Assembly: GCA_016929115.1 (NCBI GenBank)
Contig: JAFGJL010000023.1
Span: 1-56,324, forward strand
Direction: 5' to 3'
DNA: 56,324 nt
Source of the DNA: Candidatus Omnitrophota bacterium
GTDB taxonomy: Bacteria > Omnitrophota > Gorgyraeia > 2-01-FULL-45-10
The notes under the pieces are model-generated. The model saw only the letters and a list, made by a program, of their open reading frames with translations, ran no database searches and was not told the DNA's origin. How positions within the stretch are numbered: position 1 is the stretch's first letter; every line of letters begins with the position of its first letter. Positions 6,967-31,172 of the stretch are shown here, in pieces. The position numbers were made by a program, and so were the translations under genes.

Positions 6967-7033
6967 AAGTTTAGCTCATAGGAAAAGCTTTCAAACCTAT
7001 GAGCCATGAGCTAAGAGCTATGAGCTAAAACTT
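6967..7033. repeat. Heptamer (CTATGAG)n tandem plus inverted repeat between convergent greA and ispH; may act as a bidirectional terminator
   Basis: CTATGAG CCATGAG CTAAGAG CTATGAG CTAAAAC at 6997-7031, complementary to GTTTAGCTCATAGG at 6969-6982. Confidence 0.75.
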
Positions 7034-9398: not shown

Positions 9399-9412
9399 CG
9401 GAAGGAGGATAT

Positions 9413-9682
9413 ATGGGCATAAAGGTGGAAAAGTTTGACCAGGCGGCCTTAAAGAAGATGGGCGTGTTCTCATGGCCCATATGGACGAAGGAGGTCTCGA
9501 GCTTTGATTGGCATTATGACCAGATGGAGCAGTGCTATTTCCTGGAAGGCAAGGTCACCGTTGAGACTAAGGACGGTGAGAAGGTGACATTCGGCAAGGG
9601 CGATTTTGTCACGTTCCCGGTAGGCCTTTCCTGCGTATGGAAAGTTGAGCAACCTGTTAAGAAGCATTATAATTTCAGTTAA
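9413..9682 (+). CDS. Cupin domain protein (DUF861/EutQ-like)
   Basis: WPIWTKEVSSFDWHY..E.CYFLEGKV, GDFVTFP.G. Confidence 0.85.
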   Translation: MGIKVEKFDQAALKKMGVFSWPIWTKEVSSFDWHYDQMEQCYFLEGKVTVETKDGEKVTFGKGDFVTFPVGLSCVWKVEQPVKKHYNFS

Positions 9683-9692
9683 AGGAGCGTTT

Positions 9693-9902
9693 ATGAAAGC
9701 CTTTTTGGTAGGATTGCTGTTCCTGGTCTTGGTGGGTATACTTGCCGCAGTCGGGTTTGCAGGTTGGTTCCTGCTGCTGCCGCTCTTCATGGTGCTGGGG
9801 TTGCTTTTGCGGGTCCTGTTCGTATTTTTCCTCTTTGTCCTTGTCGTGTGGCTTGTCGGCAAGTTCGTCCTTTACGTGATCCATTCGCTGAAGAACATAT
9901 GA
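9693..9902 (+). CDS. Small hydrophobic membrane protein
   Basis: RBS AAGGAG, 69 aa almost entirely hydrophobic. Confidence 0.65.
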
Positions 9903-10315
9903 GATCCTACACAGACCATCTCTGGTTCAATACTAAGAACAGGCGGGAGCTTGTCAATATCACCCCGCAAGTCGCGGAAGCCGTGAAGAAGAGCGGCATC
10001 AAGGAGGGCTTATGCCTGGTGAATGCCATGCACATCACCGCGAGCGTCTTCGTCAATGACGACGAGGGCGGGCTGCACAAGGATTTCATCAGGTGGCTCG
10101 AGAAACTCGCCCCTTACGGCAAAGAGCTCTACGACCATAACCGGACCGGCGAAGATAACGGCGACGCGCATCTTAAACGCACCATAATGGGCAGGGAGGT
10201 CGTCATCGCCGTCACGGGCGGCAAGCTCGATTTCGGGCCATGGGAACAGGTCTTTTACGGCGAATTCGACGGGCAGCGGAAGAAGAGAGTGCTGGTGAAG
10301 GTCATAGGAGAATAG
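9899..10315 (+). CDS. yjbQ: YjbQ/UPF0047 family protein (second paralog)
   Basis: [39 protein letters not shown]; ATGA-coupled start 9899. Confidence 0.9.
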
Positions 10316-10316
10316 G

Positions 10317-10700
10317 ATGAAGAAACGTATCTACTATTATGACACCGACTGCGGCGGGGTGGTATATTACGCCAACTATCTGAAATACCTCGAAGAGGCC
10401 AGGACGGAATATTTCGAGAAGAGGGGCATCTTCGTGAAGGACATCTGGGCCAAGGGCATAGGTTTCGTCGTCGCGCGTCAGGAGATCGACTATAAGCTGC
10501 CGGCCGTCTACGATGACGTCCTCGAGATCGATACGCGCGTAAAGAATATCTCACGCGCAAGCGCCGAGTTCGAATACGATATAAGAAATCAGAAGGCCCA
10601 GGTCATTTCCACGGCGAAGACCGTCCTGGTCTTTGTGGACAAGAACCTGAAGCCCAAAGCGATACCCGAGGATATTAAGGCAAAGTTGGCGGCTCATTAA
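10317..10700 (+). CDS. YbgC/FadM family acyl-CoA thioesterase
   Basis: RIYYYDTDCGGVVYYANYLKYLEEARTE hotdog-fold motif. Confidence 0.9.
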   Translation: MKKRIYYYDTDCGGVVYYANYLKYLEEARTEYFEKRGIFVKDIWAKGIGFVVARQEIDYKLPAVYDDVLEIDTRVKNISRASAEFEYDIRNQKAQVISTAKTVLVFVDKNLKPKAIPEDIKAKLAAH

Positions 10701-10705
10701 GCTGT

Positions 10706-10816
10706 AAATTATGAATTATGAATTATAAATTATGAATTGTTGTGTCGCTTCGCGACCTTCTATTAAGGCCCGAAGGGCACCTGAATTCATCATTCATAAT
10801 TAATCATTTATAATTC
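10706..10816 (+). repeat. Structured MITE/REP-like element copy 1: (AATTATG)4 arm, two-hairpin core, (CATAATT)4 arm
   Basis: Read directly from sequence; core hairpins GTCGC-TTC-GCGAC (10744-10756) and GCCC-GAA-GGGC (10768-10778). Confidence 0.9.
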
Positions 10817-10832
10817 AAATAAGAGAAGGTCG

Positions 10833-11942
10833 ATGGAGAGAGATAGCGACAAAGTAAAGCGATATACAAGGATAAAGCACACGGTGGCGATAATCGACAT
10901 CGTGTTCATGATCGTATTGCTCGTGCTTTTCCAGATATCGGGGCTATCCTCGGGACTGCGCTCTTTGATCGCCAGGTCCTTCAATAACCAGCCGCTGCTT
11001 ATCCTCATCTATTCGTTCGTGCTCATCAACGGCTACTTCGTCATAAACATCCCGCTATCTTTCTATAATTCTTATGTTGTTGAACATCGCTTCGGCCTTT
11101 CGAACCAGAGCGCCAAGGCTTGGTTTTCCGACTACTTCAAAGCCGGCTTTCTGAGTGTCGCCCTTTTCATCATCCTCATCGAGGCATTCGCGTATTTCCT
11201 GAGGTCCTATCCGGCTGACTGGTGGTGGATGTGCAGCGTCTTCTGGGTGATCTTGAGCGTCATCATCGCGCGCCTTTTTCCGGTCATCGTCATCCCGCTC
11301 TTCTACAAATACAAGAGGATAGAGAACGAGGAGATGCGCCGCCGCATCCTGGACTTGTCGGCTAAGATGGGCATCAAGGTCCTCGATATATTCCAGATCG
11401 ACATGAGCTCAAAGACAGAAAAGGCCAACGCCGGCCTCGTCGGCCTGGGAAGGACGAAGCGCGTCGTCCTCGGCGATACGCTCGAAGGCAAGTTCTCGCC
11501 GGAGGAGATAGAGGTCATCCTCGCCCACGAGTTCGCCCATTTCCGCTTAAGGCACCTGGTAAAGATAATCGTCCTCAACGCGGCCCTCATCTTCCTCGTC
11601 TTTTATATCTTCTTCAGGTTCGGCCATATCGTCTTCGATCCTTTAGGCGTGAGGATGTCCGACATAGCGGGCCTTCCGCTTTGGATACTCCTCTTCACCG
11701 TATGGCAGATCGCGCTTACGCCTATGCTCAACTGGATAAGCCGCGGCATGGAGAGGAACGCCGATAAGATGGCGCTTGCCTTCACGGGGAAGAAGGACGA
11801 ATTCATATCGATGATGGAGAAGCTGGCAGAACAGAACCTGTCTGAGCGTAAACCGCCCTTATGGATAAAGATATTCTTCTACGACCATCCGCCGGTGGAA
11901 GAGCGGGTGGCGTGCGCGAGAGAGTTTGAAGGGAAACAATGA
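10833..11942 (+). CDS. M48 family (Ste24-like) membrane zinc metalloprotease
   Basis: Multiple TM segments, [14 protein letters not shown] (HExxH), [13 protein letters not shown]. Confidence 0.92.
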
Positions 11943-12877
11943 AGATACGCGATTGCGAGATAAAAATAGTCCAGGGCGATATCACGGAGCTGAAGGTCGA
12001 CGCTATCGTCAACGCGGCCAATAACAAGCTTGTGATGGGCGGCGGAGTGGCCGGCGCCATAAAGCGGAAAGGCGGCAGCCGCATCGAGGACGAGGCCGTT
12101 AAAAAAGGCCCGATAGAGATAGGCGGCGCTATCGCCACAGGCGCGGGAAAGCTTGACGCGAAATACGTCATACATGCCGCGACGATGGATATGACCTTCA
12201 GGACCGACGAGCATAAGATAAGGAATTCCTGCAGGAGCGCGCTTAAGGTGGCGGAGGGCCTGAAGATCAAGTCGATAGCGTTTCCCGCGCTGGGCTGCGG
12301 CACGGGCGGTTTTCCGCCGCTTGCCTCGGCTAAAATAATGGCGCAGGAGGCCTTCAGGCACCTGCGTGAAGAAAAGACGGCCCTAAAAGAGGTCGTTTTT
12401 TGCCTTTACGACAAAGAGTCTTATGACGTCTTCCGGAAGGGCGCCATCGGATATCTCGAACATCTGACCGATGTCATCCAGTGGGGCCCGTTCGTGACCG
12501 TCGATGCTATCATAGAAACGGCCGAGGGCGTTGTCATCATAAAGAGGAGCAATCCGCCGTTCGGCTGGGCGCTTCCGGGCGGTTTCGTCGATTACGGAGA
12601 GACGCTGGAAGACGCTGTCACGAGAGAGGCGAAAGAGGAGACGGGCCTAACCTTGGAGGACCTGAAGCAATTCCACACTTATTCAAAGCCGGGCCGCGAC
12701 CCCAGGTTCCACACCATAACCACGGTCTTCACAGCGAAGGCGAAGGGTAAGCCGAAAGCGGGTGACGACGCAGGCCAGGCAAAGGTCATCCCGCTGAGCG
12801 ATATAGGCAAGATGGAATTCGCGTTCGATCACAGGCAGGTGTTGGAGGATTACGTTCGGAAAAATTATGAATTATGA
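11939..12877 (+). CDS. Macro domain-Nudix hydrolase fusion
   Basis: [26 protein letters not shown] (macro) and Nudix box [24 protein letters not shown]. Confidence 0.92.
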
Positions 12878-12972
12878 ATGATAAATTATGAATTATGGTG
12901 CCCTTCGGGCCTGAATATAAAGGTCGCGAAGCGACACATCAATTCATAATTCATAATTCATAATTTATTATT
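12862..12972 (-). repeat. Structured MITE/REP-like element copy 2, inverted relative to copy 1
   Basis: (AATTATG)5, GCCC-TTC-GGGC, GTCGC-GAA-GCGAC, (CATAATT)3-4; reverse complement of the core matches copy 1. Confidence 0.9.
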
Positions 12973-12975
12973 GAC

Positions 12976-14850
12976 TCATCCCTCCCTTAGCTGCTTCTCC
13001 GCATCCACAATATCCCGATTGATGAGCCGCAGGGCGTTCTTGATCCTATCCTTCAGCATGGGGGAGATCGGGGTATCGTTTATCTCCCGCAGTATCTGTA
13101 TCGCCATCCTGAAATACCGCACCAGTTCGCCCTCGTCCGTATCGGTCCATTGCCCGAGTTTATTGAACTGCTCGCCGCGCATCCAGTGCTCCATAGCCTG
13201 CGCAAGATGAAAATAGGGCGGCTTGGCTATAGGGTATATCCTGCCCCGCACCTCGCGGTGCCTTATCCTGTTGTAGGTCCCCTCGCACGTGCTCTGAAGC
13301 CGGCGGTGCGATTTCGATACGTTCAAAAGCCGCTGGTTCTTGCGTGGCTCGAAGACTGTTGCCATGGCCATCACGCCGAGCGATATCTCATCGAGTTGTT
13401 CGAAGACGCCTTCTGAATAAAGTTCAGAAAGCAGGAGCTCATACCCGTAGACCGCTTTAGCGAAGAGCCCCTTGCCGGTCAGGGCCCTGCTCTCTATGTA
13501 GCCCCATTCCCTGAGGAGGCCGAGCTTCGCCTCCATAAGGCGCAGCGCCTCTTTCTGGTGCTGCTTGCCCGACTGGAAATAATGCAGGGAAAGGGGATAG
13601 ACCGTGAAGAGGTCATCCTTGTATTTTTCATAGAGGTTCAGGATCGTAGCGTAAGAGGTGTTGAACTGGCTCTTTACCTCCTCGGGCTTTCCGTAGACCA
13701 CGCGCTTCACCTCGTCAAACTTCACCCGGTGCGGGTTTATCCGGCAGTAGACGAAGCCTTCGGTATCGATGCCGCGCCTGCCGGCGCGGCCGGCCATCTG
13801 GTAGAAGTCGCGCGTTTTCAGGACGCGAGTGTAGCGGCCGTAGAACTTCAGGAAGTCGTCGAATATAACGGTGCGGCTTGGCATGTTGATGCCGAGGGCA
13901 AAGGTCTCTGTCGTGAATATCACCTTCAATAGGCGGCTCGTGAAGAGCCGCTCGATGACCTCTTTAAGCGTCGGGAGCATGCCGGCGTGGTGGAACGCGA
14001 TGCCGCGGCTGATCAGATGGAGCATGTCCCTGGCGCTGCGCTCGGTCTTAAGCTCGTAGCGCTCGCAGAGCGCGTCGTAGAGGGCGAGTATCCTGTCCTG
14101 CTCCTCCTGCGTCAGGAAGTTGATGTTGTATAGTTCCTCCGCGAGATATTCGGCGCGCTTCCTGCCGAAAACGAAGTAGATGCAGGGAAGGCCGCCCTCG
14201 CGCCTGATATAGCTGATGAGCGATGTCAATTTATTCGGCTGCCACCGCTTGACGCGTTTAAGCGCATCGATATTGTCCGCGAGCTGGTTATGGCACTGGT
14301 AGAAGAAATGCAGCGGCACCGGGCGCTTGTCCTCGATGACCGTCTTGATCGGCTTCTTGTGGATAGTCTCGATCCAGCGCGCGAAGTTCTTTATGTTCGG
14401 TATGGTCGCGGAGAGGCAGAGTATCTTCATGTGCTGCGGCAAGAATATGAGCGACTCCTCCCAGACCGAGCCGCGCTCCGGGTTGTCGATATAATGGACC
14501 TCGTCGAATATGACCCACTGGTAACGCGACAGGCTCTCGGGCTGCTCGAGGATCTTGTTGCGGAATATCTCGGTCGTCATGATGAGGACCGGCGCGTTCT
14601 GGTTGAGCGAGACGTCGCCGGTCAGTATGCCGATGCGGTCCGGGAACTGGACCTGGAAGTCGCGGAACTTCTGGTTGGAGAGCGCCTTGATAGGCGCGGT
14701 GTATATGACGCCGACGTCGCCGCGTATGCATGTGTCGATGACGTGCTCGGCGATGGCGGTCTTGCCGGCTCCTGTCGGCGCGGAGACGATGACCGAGTAG
14801 CCCTCGTTTATGTGGTCTATCGCCTCCTGTTGGAACCTGTCGTATATCAT
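12976..14850 (-). CDS. Ski2-like DEAD/DEAH box RNA helicase (HelY-like)
   Basis: APTGAGKT, DEVH, SAT, QMAGRAGRRG, DSHCT-like C-terminus; start at 14850 (MIYDRFQQEA). Confidence 0.92.
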   Translation of the reverse strand: MIYDRFQQEAIDHINEGYSVIVSAPTGAGKTAIAEHVIDTCIRGDVGVIYTAPIKALSNQKFRDFQVQFPDRIGILTGDVSLNQNAPVLIMTTEIFRNKILEQPESLSRYQWVIFDEVHYIDNPERGSVWEESLIFLPQHMKILCLSATIPNIKNFARWIETIHKKPIKTVIEDKRPVPLHFFYQCHNQLADNIDALKRVKRWQPNKLTSLISYIRREGGLPCIYFVFGRKRAEYLAEELYNINFLTQEEQDRILALYDALCERYELKTERSARDMLHLISRGIAFHHAGMLPTLKEVIERLFTSRLLKVIFTTETFALGINMPSRTVIFDDFLKFYGRYTRVLKTRDFYQMAGRAGRRGIDTEGFVYCRINPHRVKFDEVKRVVYGKPEEVKSQFNTSYATILNLYEKYKDDLFTVYPLSLHYFQSGKQHQKEALRLMEAKLGLLREWGYIESRALTGKGLFAKAVYGYELLLSELYSEGVFEQLDEISLGVMAMATVFEPRKNQRLLNVSKSHRRLQSTCEGTYNRIRHREVRGRIYPIAKPPYFHLAQAMEHWMRGEQFNKLGQWTDTDEGELVRYFRMAIQILREINDTPISPMLKDRIKNALRLINRDIVDAEKQLREG

Positions 14851-14856
14851 AGGAGT

Positions 14857-14885
14857 ATTATAGTCTAACTGCGACCAAATGTAAA
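14857..14885 (-). promoter_or_regulatory. sigma70 promoter of helicase (leaderless)
   Basis: Minus strand TTTACA-N17-TATAAT with ATG 6 nt downstream. Confidence 0.7.
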
Positions 14886-14904
14886 TGAGGCCTGTCTGCA
14901 TGCC

Positions 14905-14935
14905 GAGAAAATGGGGACAGACCCTATTTTTCCCC
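14905..14935. repeat. REP-like palindrome, copy B, between divergent genes
   Basis: GAGAAAATGGGGACAGACCCTATTTTTCCCC; reverse complement closely matches copy A. Confidence 0.75.
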
Positions 14936-14976
14936 ATATGGAAATTTAAAAAATGCGGTATAATATGACTATTACT

Positions 14977-16947
14977 ATGGATAATATCATCCAAAAGCTC
15001 AAGCCTGTCGCGCCATTCATATTGCTGGCGGCGCTTGTCATAGGCGTCTACGCCAATTCCATCCACGGCAAGTTCCTGCTAGATGACAACATCCTCATAA
15101 AGGACAACGATTACATAAAGAGCTTCTCGCACGTGCCGAAAGTCTTCACTACTGACATGGGCGGCACATCCGGGTATGTCTATAAGTTTTACCGGCCCAT
15201 ACAGATGGTGGTCCACATGTCGCAGTACCACCTCTGGAAATTCGACGTGCGCTTCTACCACATGACGAGCATCCTCTTCCATATCCTCGTCGTCTTCGCG
15301 CTCTACCGGCTGATCAATATACTCTTCAAGGACGGCATCCTCGCGCTCTTCACCGCCGTGCTTTACGCCGTGCACCCCATACATTCCGAATCCGTCGCGG
15401 CCATTTCCGTCATAGGCGATCCTATAGTCGCGCTATTCATGCTCCTTTCGCTCAGCTTTTACATAAAACAGTTGGATGAGCCCCGTCCGGGGACGTATTT
15501 TCTGCTGTATTTGACCTTTCTTCTCGCGCTCTTCTCGAAGGAGAGCGGTCTCATGCTCTTAGGCTTGTTCCTGGCCTACCATTTCACCTTCCGGAAGAAG
15601 ATAAAGGTCCTGCCCCTCATGATCCTCGCCGCTATCACCGCCTTCTATCTTCTTTTCCGCATATTTTTCTTTAAGGCGGCTAAAACAGCTCCGCCCGACA
15701 TGTCGCTGGGCGGTATCGCTGCGAGGATACCGGGCATATTCGTCGCCATAGCCGGTTATATGCGGATACTTATCGCGCCCTTCGGCCTTCACATGGGGCA
15801 TGAACACGTATTGTTCAAGATGACAGACCCGGCGGCCATAACAGGCCTTGCCATAGTCATCGCATTGGCGGCCTTCGCCTTCATGGCATGGCGGAAAAAC
15901 AATACGCTGGTCCTTTTCGCGACCGCCTGGTCATTCATAACGCTCTTACCGGTATCGAACCTCTACCCGATATCTTTTTACATGGCCGACCATTACCTAT
16001 ACCTGGCTTCGATCGGCTTTTTCCTCCTCGTGGCGAAGGCGCTCCGCTCGGCTTATGATAAACAGCAATTAAAAAAATACGCTATCGCCGCGCTGGTGAT
16101 ATTGACGGCATTTTATTCCGTCCGCACCATGCAGCAGAACGGTTACTGGAAAGACGCGCGCACTTTTTACGAAAGGACGTTGAAATACACGCCGACGAGC
16201 GGCCGCTCATACAATAATCTGGGCAATGAATACCTGCTCGCCAACGATCTCGAAAAGGCGGCGGAATTTTACAGGAAAGCGATCGCGGCGGATCCGCGTT
16301 TCATGATGTCATATTACAATCTCGGCGTCGTGAGCTATAAGCTCGGGAAGATGGAAGACGCCATATGGTACTGCCAAAGGGCGATAGAGCTGGATCCCAA
16401 CTATCCGCATTCCTACAATGAACTGGGCCTGATATATTGGGCCATGGGCAAAAAGGACGAAGCGATAGCCGCTTACAAAACGGCGATATCGCTCTCTCCG
16501 AATCCGGTAACGTTCCGCAACCTGGCTATGGCCTATAGCGAACTCAATATGAGGGAGGAAGCCGTATGGGCCCTTAAAAAAGCCCTGGAGATAGATCCGA
16601 ACGCGGCCGACATCCATATGCGGTTGGGCTTCATTTATTTAACTATGGGCAGGAACGAAGATGCTGTCTTGGCTTATTCGAAGGCTATATCCCTTCGCCC
16701 TGACAATGTCGCTGCCATGAACGACCTCGGCGTCATCTATTTCCAGGGCGGCATGCGCGAGAAGGGGATAGACTTGATAAGGAAAGCTATATCGATAAAG
16801 CCCGACTATGCAGCGGCGCACGCGAATCTCGGCCTTATGTATCTTGAGAGCGGCAGGATGGAAGAGGCGACGGCGGCGTTCAAAAGAGCGCTGGAGACAG
16901 ATCCTGCGAATAAGCAAGCCCAAGACGGCCTTTCGAAAATAAAATAA
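14977..16947 (+). CDS. TMTC-like GT-C membrane glycosyltransferase with C-terminal TPR array
   Basis: LLDDN..I..N, FYRP, HPIHSESV, SKE, DHYLY motifs, many TM segments, ~8 TPRs (YNNLG, YYNLG, HANLG); start uncertain (14953/14965/14977). Confidence 0.8.
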   Translation: MDNIIQKLKPVAPFILLAALVIGVYANSIHGKFLLDDNILIKDNDYIKSFSHVPKVFTTDMGGTSGYVYKFYRPIQMVVHMSQYHLWKFDVRFYHMTSILFHILVVFALYRLINILFKDGILALFTAVLYAVHPIHSESVAAISVIGDPIVALFMLLSLSFYIKQLDEPRPGTYFLLYLTFLLALFSKESGLMLLGLFLAYHFTFRKKIKVLPLMILAAITAFYLLFRIFFFKAAKTAPPDMSLGGIAARIPGIFVAIAGYMRILIAPFGLHMGHEHVLFKMTDPAAITGLAIVIALAAFAFMAWRKNNTLVLFATAWSFITLLPVSNLYPISFYMADHYLYLASIGFFLLVAKALRSAYDKQQLKKYAIAALVILTAFYSVRTMQQNGYWKDARTFYERTLKYTPTSGRSYNNLGNEYLLANDLEKAAEFYRKAIAADPRFMMSYYNLGVVSYKLGKMEDAIWYCQRAIELDPNYPHSYNELGLIYWAMGKKDEAIAAYKTAISLSPNPVTFRNLAMAYSELNMREEAVWALKKALEIDPNAADIHMRLGFIYLTMGRNEDAVLAYSKAISLRPDNVAAMNDLGVIYFQGGMREKGIDLIRKAISIKPDYAAAHANLGLMYLESGRMEEATAAFKRALETDPANKQAQDGLSKIK

Positions 16948-16959
16948 ATTTTTGTCACC

Positions 16960-16987
16960 AGTTCCCGGCCGGGGCGGGAACTTTTTT
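16960..16987 (+). terminator. Rho-independent terminator
   Basis: AGTTCCCG-7 nt loop-CGGGAACT followed by a T run. Confidence 0.8.
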
Positions 16988-20100: not shown

Positions 20101-23100
20101 GATGTCTCGGGTCTGGTCACGGCCGAGTACTCCGCATCGGGCATCCGCGAATTGCTTTCCCGCGTTGCGCAGATCGGCAACAATATTCTCATAGTAAAAG
20201 ACCACTTCTGCCTATTCGACGACGGCCCGATAGCGCATACGAGGCGGGGCACAAGCGGCAGACATACCGCCCTGTGGCTCGGCAGCAAGCTCTTCACCCA
20301 CCCCGATATCACGGACGAGGACATAGCCCTCCTCATGCTCGAAGAGACCAAGCACATACTCTTCCCCGACGCGCCGCACGACAAGATCCGCCATTCCGAA
20401 GAGCTCAGGAAGAAACTTCTCAGATGCTCCAGAGGCCTGGGCGAAATCCCGTCCGAAAAGCTCTGTGAAGCCGACATGTCCGCGTCCAAAAATAAAATAG
20501 GGACAGACACCAATATCCCGGCGGCGCAAAAGATCCCTGAAGTGCAAGTATATTTGGAACACGATCGCGTTTTTTACCAGGTCACCGGCGCACTTGATGC
20601 CGGAAAGATCCCGGCCGGCCTGCCGCTTATCGTATTCGATTACCACAGCGATAATTTTGAGACTAACCCGGGGAACGGCATCGGCCCGGCGAATTGGGTA
20701 AGCTATGCGGCCCGGAGCGGGGCGGTGGGCGACATATTCTGGGCTTATCCTCCCGACGACCACTCGCTTTTATACAGGGAGAACGATTGTTTCAAAGATA
20801 CGGATAGCGATTGGAAGTCGCTTATTCTGAGGAACCTGCCGTTATTCGGAAAAGGGGTCATTCTGTCCTTCGACATGGATTATTTCGCGAGGATCGAGGA
20901 TGCCGGACAAGTTGGGCTCCTGCCGGAAGCAGGGCAGGTGAGGCGGCAAATCCTGGAGGTGTTCAGGTTCTTAAGAGAGAAAGGCATTCCCGTCCATCTG
21001 GTCAACGGCGCCTACTCTTCGCCGCGTCACGCTCCTATGAGCTACAACAAGGAATTTAGCGACGCGCTTTTCGAAGCGGTTTTGGAAAACAAGGGCTTCG
21101 GCCCCGGCACGCCGCACATCGACCAGCCGATGGATGACGAGAAAGAAGAAGACCCCGCTGAGTTTAACCGTAAGGCATTTTCACTGCTCGGCAATGTGGT
21201 AAGGGCGGAGCTCGGCGAAGATTTTAAGGGCACATACTGGGCCGGGGGATGCGATATTGAGATATGCAAAACAGTAGGAGGCGAATGGAATGTTCAGGGT
21301 TTGGATTATGAATCCGGAAAATATAACAAGCGTTATAAAAGAGATTATGATGACCCGAATAAGGTAAAAGAGGCGGGATTCACCCCTGTTTCCTGGGATG
21401 TCATGACTCTTGAGTTACCTCCGGCTATAAGTTTAGGCTCCCAGGACGCCGCTCTTATTAAACACCCGGGAGGGGATTATCACAGTTTCCGCGAAGGACT
21501 CTGGTATTGTGTGACAGCATCCCTGAGAGAAGGGGGCTTGTTGATAACGGATACCCCGATCCCGGAAGAATACACGGATGTTTACGAACGGATCGTTGAC
21601 CTTGCGGGGAAAGATGGGGTCGAGGAGATAGAATATATCTGGGACGAGGGGTGCCCAAGAAAGCTAAAATTAAAACTATATCGCAGAAAAACATATCCCG
21701 ATGTGACGCGACAGCTTCAGCTTATCGATAAAGCCGCGGTGGCTCCCGAAGATAAGATAAGAGTTTTAACAGGCTTTCTGGGAAATTACGGCCATCTTGA
21801 AGAGGTGAGGCGCAGGTTGGTCGATATCGGCCAACCTGCCATTCCCCACCTTGTGAAAGCGCTCATATCGTGCAAGGACGGATTTATCAGGGGCATTATT
21901 GTGCGGATATTGATAGAAAGCTCGCACAGGTCCATCATCCCGACGCTTATCGATTGCCTGGGAGATGAAGAACGCCTGGTAAAAAACTCCGCCTCTCAGG
22001 CGCTGGTTAAGTTCGGTTTAGTCGCAGTTCCCTTTCTGATAGAGGCCCTGCCGGATGATGAGATGAAAGTGGAGATGGCTTATGAAGAGAGGCAAGAGAT
22101 AAGAGCAAGAAGCGACAGAATAGAGGATGTACTGAAAGATATCGGATCGCCCGCGGTGCCGGTTATGATCGATGCCCTGAAAAGAAAGGCCGGAAACGAG
22201 TCCGAGGAGCGAAGGTGCCTTTCGATATTGTACGTTTTGGAAAAGATCGGAGATAAAAGGGCCGTGGGAGTATTATGTGAGATCGGGAAAAATAGATCCC
22301 AGAGCAAAGCCGGCGAACAAATGCGCCTTTTGGCAGTGAGGGCATTTGGGAAAATCGGTGGTAAAGCGGCCCTGAAAACATTGAGAGAAATTCTGTTTGA
22401 TGATGGCGAAGACGCCGACATGAAAAGTCGAGCAGCAACCTCTTATACAAGTATAGAGATCCCCGAGGCCAAGTCCGAAAATATTAGACTGCTTATCGGT
22501 CTTTTGGCGAGCTGGGAGCAAAATTACGTAGAGCCCGGAGAAAGATTGGTCCAGATCGGAGAGCCTGCCATTCCACCCTTGATAGCGGCTTTACGAGACA
22601 AGAGTAATGATAAGTGCATGCGTTTACGCATTGCGAATCTTCTTGGCCGGATAAAAGATGCCCGGGCCATTCCCGCGCTCACGGGCTTTTTGCTGGAGCA
22701 GGTTTCGGAGAGGGACGAACCTCCAGTAAAAAAAGGCGGTTTTTTATTTTTCGACGACAGGGGAGAGTTCTTTCCTTATATCGCAAAGATATTGGTTGGC
22801 TTCGGGCCTGAGGCGAGAGAAGCGATCCCGCTCCTTAAAAAAATGCTTAAGGATGAGGATGAGGAATATCGAAAGGCGGCCGAAGACGCCTTAAAAAATA
22901 TCGAACCCCAAAACACCGAAGGCCACGCTACCAGCGCCCCGCCTGCCGGCTCGCCGGCCGAGTGCCTGAGGACAATATTCTGCGACAGCGGCCTGAGGAC
23001 GAGGACGGATATATCGGCAAAGGACCTTCTCGGGAAGCGCAAAAAGGCCGATGGAACGGCCGCGCTCTCGCCAAGGACCATATATAAGGAGCTTGAGATC

Positions 23101-31094: not shown

Positions 31095-31172
31095 CTGACG
31101 GAGAAGCGGTCCCTGACTAAAGATTGAGTTGGCAAGGTAACTTGCATTTATCATTCATAATTTAAGGAGGAA

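Follow-up and report, generated by a model that had tools for sequence, protein, structure and literature searches.

Intervening sequences in ribosomal RNA (rRNA) genes are found in Salmonella, Leptospira, Coxiella, and Azospirillum. In Salmonella, they include short-loop forms of about 100 nt. Others carry a gene of PF05635 / TIGR02436, the family named "23S rRNA intervening sequence protein," S23p, or four-helix-bundle protein. The protein is presumably pentameric and Avd-like. To our knowledge, four-helix-bundle proteins are very common and the only relative that has been studied is Avd of the diversity-generating retroelements. The Coxiella intervening sequence, as laid out in the sections of the published study that deal with it, has tandem GACAGAT heptamers ahead of the S23p gene, in a number that varies among strains, and a 28-bp terminal stem that RNase III cuts in the middle (PMC4990558). 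Those sections give the origin of rRNA intervening sequences as unknown (PMC4990558). Here, a hairpin element of similar build is described that lies between protein-coding genes. It occurs twice in a stretch of 56,324 nucleotides (the window), which is contig JAFGJL010000023.1 (C51) of a Candidatus Omnitrophota genome, GCA_016929115.1 (G000). Other G numbers denote related genomes and L numbers denote loci.

Correia elements of Neisseria are co-transcribed MITEs (miniature transposable elements with inverted repeats) whose stems are cut by RNase III. Repetitive extragenic palindromic (REP) sequences reportedly carry a conserved GTAG or CGTC tag at one end of the palindrome (PMC3733652). In Xanthomonas, there are 70-75 convergent inverted pairs of GGGAATC arrays per genome (PMC4692102). 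The sections on these arrays report that their length varies between close species and that they are mostly transcribed; they treat them as G-quadruplex repeats and give no mechanism (PMC4692102).

The element in the window has been copied to unlinked intergenic spacers, where it lies in either orientation, and close relatives differ in whether a site has it. Heptamer-armed hairpins form a wider class, of which it is one family; the gene-bearing members of that class carry PF05635, as 23S intervening sequences do. The element is probably a non-autonomous, insertion-polymorphic, gene-less hairpin element related to the rRNA intervening sequences, with the four-helix-bundle protein as its candidate mobiliser. 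The two copies are about 110 bp long and are located at 10706-10818 on the plus strand and 12862-12972 on the minus strand. Each consists of inverted AATTATG-type heptamer arrays, with four to five degenerate units per arm, around a core of about 42-44 nt. In copy 1, a left arm of about five degenerate AATTATG heptamers (10706-10740, in a period-7 array spanning 10703-10740) is followed by a first hairpin or ear, GTCGC-TTC-GCGAC (10744-10756), an AT-rich linker, CTTCTATTAAG (10757-10767), and a second ear, GCCC-GAA-GGGC (10768-10778). Both ears are supported by pairing and covariation. The right arm, of complementary CATAATT-type heptamers (10782-10818), ends 15 nt 5' of the start codon of an M48 peptidase gene (10833). 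Copy 2 is reversed on the minus strand. Its core (12897-12939) holds ear 2 at 12900-12910, the linker, and ear 1 at 12923-12935, and scores 70.9 bits with R1, a covariance model of the core. The arm adjoining ear 2 (12862-12896) gives a Macro-Nudix gene its last five codons and its TGA stop (12875-12877), and the arm adjoining ear 1 (12940-12972) ends 3 nt from the stop codon of a convergent helicase gene (12976).

In the 56-kb window, the left core motif, TGTGTCGCTTCGCGACCTT, is found only at 10741-10759 (+) and 12920-12938 (-), two matches against 0.02 expected, and the right core motif, AGGCCCGAAGGGCACC, only at 10766-10781 (+) and 12897-12912 (-), two against 0.04 expected. The double heptamer AATTATGAATTATG, with up to two mismatches, gave 14 matches in the window against 0.77 expected. 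Thirteen of them are inside the two elements and one is at 31149-31162. The original prediction, made from the letters of the window alone, had reported two inverted copies at these positions, and the core strings that it quoted match letter for letter. Its remark that the ears are identical while linker and arms drift also holds, the copies being 80-86% alike overall. At 31134-31162, there is a short piece resembling an AATTATG-family arm, TTATCATTCATAATT, directly 5' of the ribosome-binding site of an open reading frame that starts at about 31177. Either a lone arm or a remnant could account for this piece.

The neighbouring genes are ordinary ones and encode a 4HBT thioesterase, the M48 peptidase, a Macro-Nudix fusion protein, and a DEAD/DSHCT helicase. 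Copy 1 occupies the spacer between the thioesterase and peptidase genes, and copy 2 occupies the gap between the convergent Macro-Nudix and helicase genes. Metagenome contigs scanned with the Macro-Nudix protein gave 70 related loci. The core is absent from all 70, and no period-7 arrays were found in their 307,900 bases. The closest locus, L138, has 90% protein identity and 84-91% DNA identity and is collinear with the window from 9411 to 15165, with both elements absent. Its thioesterase and peptidase genes overlap in ATGA (26 bp, against 165 bp in the window), and the stops of its convergent Macro-Nudix and helicase genes abut (15 bp, against 123 bp). Since both sites are empty in L138, both elements are insertions in the lineage of the window. 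The enclosed genes keep their order without the elements in the 70 related loci, L138 included, and thus were not brought by them.

A search of the G000 assembly (1.50 Mb in 79 contigs, 90% complete, 55% G+C) with the core identified 10 copies on nine contigs. A further copy is truncated where contig C27 ends, and C30 has an arm on its own. All 10 are in short intergenic spaces at unlinked sites, eight between co-directional and two between convergent genes, with none between divergent genes. Relative to its co-directional neighbours, the core is sense in three cases and antisense in five. These orientation counts come from the hand-read table of G000 only. Orientation classes based on the longest open frames (14, 13, 11, and 10, near-equal) were discarded after known G000 genes were found to be mis-called. 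The copies on C7 and C67 are near-identical across arms and core while their flanks are unrelated; therefore, the whole unit was copied. The C6 copy is different in that its AATTATG arms enclose the core together with a gene for a 121-amino-acid PF05635 / TIGR02436 protein (E 1e-29 and 9e-34). On C30 (5102-5135, locus L018), a lone AATTATG array makes up the entire 25-nt spacer between two genes, and the downstream start codon lies in its last unit. Many elements are located at or near contig ends (C38, C27, C7, C14, C48, and C67, within the first 1.5 kb), and two contigs start within an arm. The elements probably break the assembly, and the copy numbers for G000 are thus lower bounds.

The core can be followed through the order. 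A scan with the core pattern placed eight of nine matches in Candidatus Omnitrophota genomes. When 40 relatives were searched at the DNA level, the full element was found only in G000, and the core alone was found in three other genera, flanked by quite different heptamers. At E<=0.01, R1 matched 22 of the order's 44 genomes, and a single genome could hold as many as 12 copies. Across 151 genomes sampled from the whole phylum, it matched four at E<=1e-4, all within the order. Sixteen R1 matches were inspected. The 13 with E of about 2e-6 or better were all heptamer-armed, and in the three weakest (E of about 7e-5 to 5e-4) little beyond ear 1 was aligned. Of 20 further matches, 19 were heptamer-armed. 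The arms are alike within one genome and different in sequence between genomes, though still heptameric. A copy count, a covariance model, and a check for empty sites had been suggested for the element at the outset, and they have now given the 10 cores, the R1 matches in half of the order's sampled genomes (22/44), and the two empty sites of L138.

Orthologous spacers were also compared. Two such sites are occupied in different genera or families, with the core in opposite orientation and the arms unrelated. The spacer between murA and rpsP was taken from 30 of the 40 genomes with murA. Fifteen of these spacers are empty (5-30 nt), nine contain heptamer-armed hairpins, two are doubtful, and four have other short inserts. 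The heptamer and the loop are different in each of the nine. The loop is a two-ear core in G014 and G015, has one ear in G003, has another core in G054, and is plain in G001, G007, G018, G004, and G052. Ten such spacers were compared by 8-mers with the flanks of four-helix-bundle genes. In five, the arms have many 8-mers in common with those of a gene in their own genome, but few with flanks from elsewhere.

The core is conserved for its structure. Both strands of the elements fold much better than shuffled sequences. As RNA, they reach -32.7 to -41.4 kcal/mol with z between -4.2 and -6.6, and for DNA z is between -4.8 and -6.6. In 40 of 49 family members, the lowest-energy fold is not a T shape but an imperfect long hairpin that spans the core. 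The two folds were compared on a MAFFT alignment of 47 cores with 500 shuffles per fold. The two ears with a two-pair closing helix have 94.3% of cells paired and six pairs with compensatory double changes. None of the 500 shuffles matched their paired share, double-change cells, or covariation score and two matched the number of double-change pairs, although such counts overstate the significance because the aligned cores are related sequences. The long hairpin has 84.1% of cells paired and five double-change pairs; its paired share was matched by 365 of the 500 shuffles, and it showed no excess covariation. A smaller alignment of 18 cores had the same outcome in favour of the two-ear fold. 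Ear stem variants come from several genera (GTCAC/GTGAC, GCCGCC/GGCGGC, and GTCTC/GAGAC; GTCC/GGAC and GTCAC/GTGAC). The 47 cores start with (A/T)(T/G)GTGTC and end with GACAC(A/C), and the ear loops are mostly C-GNA-G triloops, which are very stable in DNA. Judged by covariation, the conserved form is a T- or Y-shaped three-way junction with two small hairpins, under structural selection. The T/Y fold of the original prediction is therefore supported for its two ears, and for the selection that it proposed on them, while the energy minimum is mostly the long hairpin.

The arms have their own features. Their complementarity is 82% (1292 of 1579 positions), and the mismatches comprise 54 G.T, 61 A.C, and 172 others, with no strand bias. 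When arms were read inwards, 44 of 94 (from 47 of the 49 elements, copies from one genome not being independent) had stops in all three frames, against 27 +/- 4 in shuffles. Since 7 is coprime to 3, a repeat unit that contains a stop triplet will block every reading frame within 21 nt. This may be the reason why insertion at gene ends is tolerated.

It is the arms that are general. The G000 genome is full of heptamer-armed hairpins, which are diverse in sequence, and some of them carry a four-helix-bundle gene. There are 67 arrays of period 7 in G000, against 0-5 for each other period of 4-12. They belong to the families AATTATG, TAGCGTA, GAGCTAT, ACTCCCA, and others, and many are present as inverted pairs around short plain loops. 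In addition to the gene on C6, there is one other PF05635 gene in G000, on C38, and it has inverted AGACCGT/AGACCAA arrays on its flanks. PF05635 is present in 20 of the 40 genomes of the family. Inverted flanking arms passed the score threshold at 19 of the 30 family PF05635 loci that were returned and at none of 30 controls. The repeat unit differs from locus to locus and is in most cases seven bases long. All nine family genomes with strong core matches (E<1e-5) have PF05635, against 11 of the 31 others; since the genomes are kin, this co-occurrence is a lead and not a test. A tblastn search for plasmids with the four-helix-bundle protein gave 34 records, mostly cyanobacterial. Ten plasmid loci were inspected. 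Heptamer arms in inverted order were seen at six. At three others, both sides carry arrays, but these are direct or non-complementary, and one has almost none. PF05635 genes within heptamer arms were found in Omnitrophota and four further phyla. One of the ten inspected loci, from Azospirillum lipoferum 4B (L272), with heptamer arms and a four-helix-bundle gene, lies in a 23S rRNA gene (Rfam LSU positions 978-1449) and is thus a true intervening sequence. Within the literature searched, in which supplements were not covered, heptamer arrays were linked with PF05635 genes only in the Coxiella study.

With rRNA intervening sequences, the element has in common a long stem, built of terminal inverted repeats, that encloses either a short loop or a PF05635 gene, as is seen in its folds, in the gene-bearing form on C6, and in Azospirillum. 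The heptamers of the stem stand in tandem in Azospirillum and, in the sections on its intervening sequence, in Coxiella (PMC4990558). Sporadic distribution and an unexplained origin and spread are also common to both. Unlike intervening sequences, which are inserted at helix tips of 16S or 23S rRNA, both window copies are between protein-coding genes, and there are about 10 per genome. The conserved two-hairpin junction is not reported for rRNA intervening sequences, and cutting by RNase III would apply to the element by analogy only. No 23S rRNA gene was found in the G000 assembly. As in MITEs, and Correia elements in particular (about 100-150 bp), the element is short, gene-less, and multi-copy, has inverted ends, is inserted next to genes, and is present or absent at a site (10 cores, two empty sites in L138). 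It differs in that its ends are tandem heptamers instead of unique inverted repeats and in that no parent insertion sequence was found that has a transposase and matching terminal repeats; nor is a target-site duplication visible at the diverged junctions with the L138 sites. Cyanobacterial short tandemly repeated repetitive (STRR) heptamers and Xanthomonas GGGAATC repeats are likewise intergenic heptamer arrays, those of Xanthomonas often in inverted pairs (PMC4692102). The arms described here are not G-rich, and the sections on the Xanthomonas arrays name no core, four-helix-bundle gene, or mobility (PMC4692102). The T-shaped ends of parvoviruses, to which the element had been likened, also have a stem topped by two small hairpins. 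This likeness is one of shape and goes no further, the element being chromosomal, internal, multi-copy, ten times too small for a replicon, and without an accompanying Rep gene. No Rfam family was matched. Even at a loose threshold, the best model in 10000-13500, for a plant microRNA, reached 21.6 bits (E 0.28) where its gathering score is 230, in keeping with the earlier statement that the element fits no standard feature class.

The inverted heptamer arrays pair into a stem of about 35 bp that closes a three-way junction of two small conserved hairpins and an AT-rich linker. A mechanism can be proposed as follows. The element would be selfish, non-autonomous DNA copied by a trans-acting factor. 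This factor may recognise the conserved junction, the arrays, or both, and the four-helix-bundle protein is the candidate. When a host operon is transcribed, the arms could form a long duplex and be cut by an RNase III-type enzyme as in rRNA intervening sequences. Several observations weigh against an element of this kind. Short AATTATG-armed contigs in two RNA-library runs come from other loci and are no sign of transcription. The arm mismatches have no excess of G-U, and thus nothing points to RNA from one strand. The sole RNase III homologue found in G000 has 152 amino acids, consists of the catalytic domain alone, and scores 160.8 bits, below the cut-off of 166. It is encoded at C73:5107-5565 (L263:1471-1929), lacks the double-stranded-RNA-binding domain, and has a GAGCTAT-family hairpin about 300 nt downstream. 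No enzyme is tied to the element. The only gene found in matching arms encodes the 121-amino-acid PF05635 protein, which is not a known transposase, and the largest heptamer families of G000, TAGCGTA and GAGCTAT, have no four-helix-bundle gene in their arms in the 90%-complete assembly. In a comparison that sampled part of the PF05635 loci and left out the C67 copy, a match between two-ear arms and those around a four-helix-bundle gene in their own genome was seen in G001 and, through C6, in G000, but in none of the other seven genomes. At the two empty sites of L138, with 84-91% DNA identity, no target-site duplication or clean junction can be read. Finally, the same spacer is occupied in different genera, and long retention by the host fits this as well as repeated insertion.

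Alternatively, the element could be no parasite but an RNA structure that serves the host, its stem and junction being retained for processing or insulating the transcripts of operons. It might be a site for RNase III between cistrons, stabilise transcript ends, or terminate weakly in both directions. Its positions are compatible with such a role, eight of the 10 copies being between co-directional genes, two between convergent genes, and none between divergent genes. So are the murA-rpsP hairpins in 9 of 30 genomes, the two orthologous sites that are occupied in different genera or families, the conservation of the core with compensatory changes across the order, and the terminator-like combination of ear 1 and the CTTTATATT that follows it in both copies. 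A host function is nevertheless unlikely. Half of the murA-rpsP spacers (15/30) are empty, as are both window sites in L138, where the genes overlap or abut. The orientation is mixed, with three sense and five antisense, and G-U excess is absent on either strand. The terminator scan flagged four sites, including ear 1 with CTTTATATT in both copies, against 2.8 expected, which is the level of chance. A sigma-70-like TTGATG-17-TATATT in copy 2 was rejected, its first hexamer not being conserved among copies. Another view is that the 44-nt two-ear core alone is mobile and lands in the loops of pre-existing heptamer hairpins, whose arms grow in situ by slippage and by template switching between the halves of the quasi-palindrome. 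Very small dispersed repeats within cyanobacterial heptamer repeats were reportedly described by Elhai et al. in 2008. It fits this view that one spacer can carry plain, one-ear, different-core, or two-ear loops in either orientation, that G027 and G024 have near-identical cores inside two different arm families, and that a contig from another sample has AATTATG arms around a 13-nt loop. We consider it improbable, since all 10 G000 cores are in AATTATG arms and none is in the approximately 34 arrays of the two larger families, and since arms and core were copied together within the genome, as on C7 and C67.

The element had also been suggested to be a non-autonomous mobile or recombination element resembling the single-stranded substrates of HUH enzymes. 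The first part agrees with the gene-less form, the 10 cores, and the empty sites of L138. For the second, the relevant system would be REP sequences or their doublets (REPINs), with Y1 transposases similar to REP-associated tyrosine transposases (RAYTs) recognising the ears on single-stranded DNA. The element does resemble these in being a short, multi-copy intergenic palindrome that occurs in both orientations and consists of two inverted half-units, each with a small hairpin, and its C-GNA-G triloops would suit such recognition. There are five Y1_Tnp (IS200/RAYT-like) genes in the 1.5-Mb G000. Y1 genes are present in 34 of the 40 family genomes, and for this reason their co-occurrence with the core is uninformative. 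Each Y1 gene of G000 is flanked by its own inverted repeat, two of which are dispersed (37 and about 20 hits) and unlike the ears, and no copy of the element flanks any of the five. These Y1 systems are ordinary REP/RAYT systems, separate from the element. G003 is core-positive without a Y1 match in a 79%-complete assembly, and G015 has 11 cores and one weak Y1 match. The GTAG or CGTC tag is absent from the 47 aligned cores, and the arms change completely between genera. Nothing shows that the element is a single-stranded-DNA or HUH substrate, and this origin is very improbable. It had been expected that the acting enzyme would not be in the window, and none is encoded there. Of the genes that might have been enclosed by such arms, the PF05635 gene on C6 was found, and no Y1 gene is flanked by the element. 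A reverse-transcriptase route is likewise unsupported, with no PF00078 match in the 90%-complete G000 assembly. Lastly, the two copies in the window, in opposite orientation and 2.1 kb apart around two genes, invite the idea that they are a functional pair, the ends of a composite transposon or invertible segment carrying the M48 peptidase and Macro-Nudix genes. This has next to no probability and was rejected. In L138, the four genes follow one another as in the window without the repeats, the gene order is kept without them in other related loci, and the core is absent from the 70 Macro-Nudix loci. The other eight G000 copies are solitary. No contig with an inverted segment was found; the sole opposite-strand joint, in an RNA-library contig, belongs to a different element.

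A non-autonomous element related to the intervening sequences bears on three puzzles that may have one answer, namely, the origin and spread of rRNA intervening sequences, the function of four-helix-bundle proteins, and the over-representation of heptamers in bacteria. The shared build hints at how the intervening sequences arose. The Omnitrophota family offers a handle on these questions through its covarying junction, through arms that turn over completely between genera yet stay heptameric and complementary, through filled and empty sites in close relatives, and through forms with and without a gene that share their arms within one genome. A broader idea, which is possible but doubtful, is that heptamer arrays and PF05635 genes form one widespread, unrecognised mobile class. 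It would include the rRNA intervening sequences, cyanobacterial STRR sequences, Xanthomonas inverted heptamers, and Omnitrophota hairpins. An Avd-like protein would recognise the periodic arms and promote copying without a known transposase, and the two-ear elements would be gene-less riders. For annotation, the elements account for odd gene ends, such as the arm that supplies five codons and a stop, and they may account for contig breaks in these metagenome-assembled genomes.

Other repeats were observed in the window and elsewhere. At 6970-7031, there is a second heptamer-armed hairpin of a different family, with TAGCTCA / TGAGCTA units. Its loop is about 15 nt, and its left arm is short whereas its right arm is long. 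This family has about 14 arrays in G000. On a plasmid of Pseudanabaena galeata (L264, 45968-46903), a four-helix-bundle gene is located between cas6 and cas4, preceded by some 16 AAAAGCT units and followed by some 12 AAAAGCC units in direct, not inverted, order. The window also has single REP-like repeats at 16962-16981 and 20498-20511, TTCCCGGCCGGGGCGGGAAC (37 hits in G000, often as inverted pairs) and TAGGGACAGACACC (the family of about 20 hits), and each of these repeats flanks one Y1 gene on other G000 contigs. Upstream of the Y1 genes on C62, C48, and C13, a common conserved box, TTGCAACAATTTAG...CGTCTTTATATAT, is present; within this box, CTTTATAT is similar to the two-ear core's linker.

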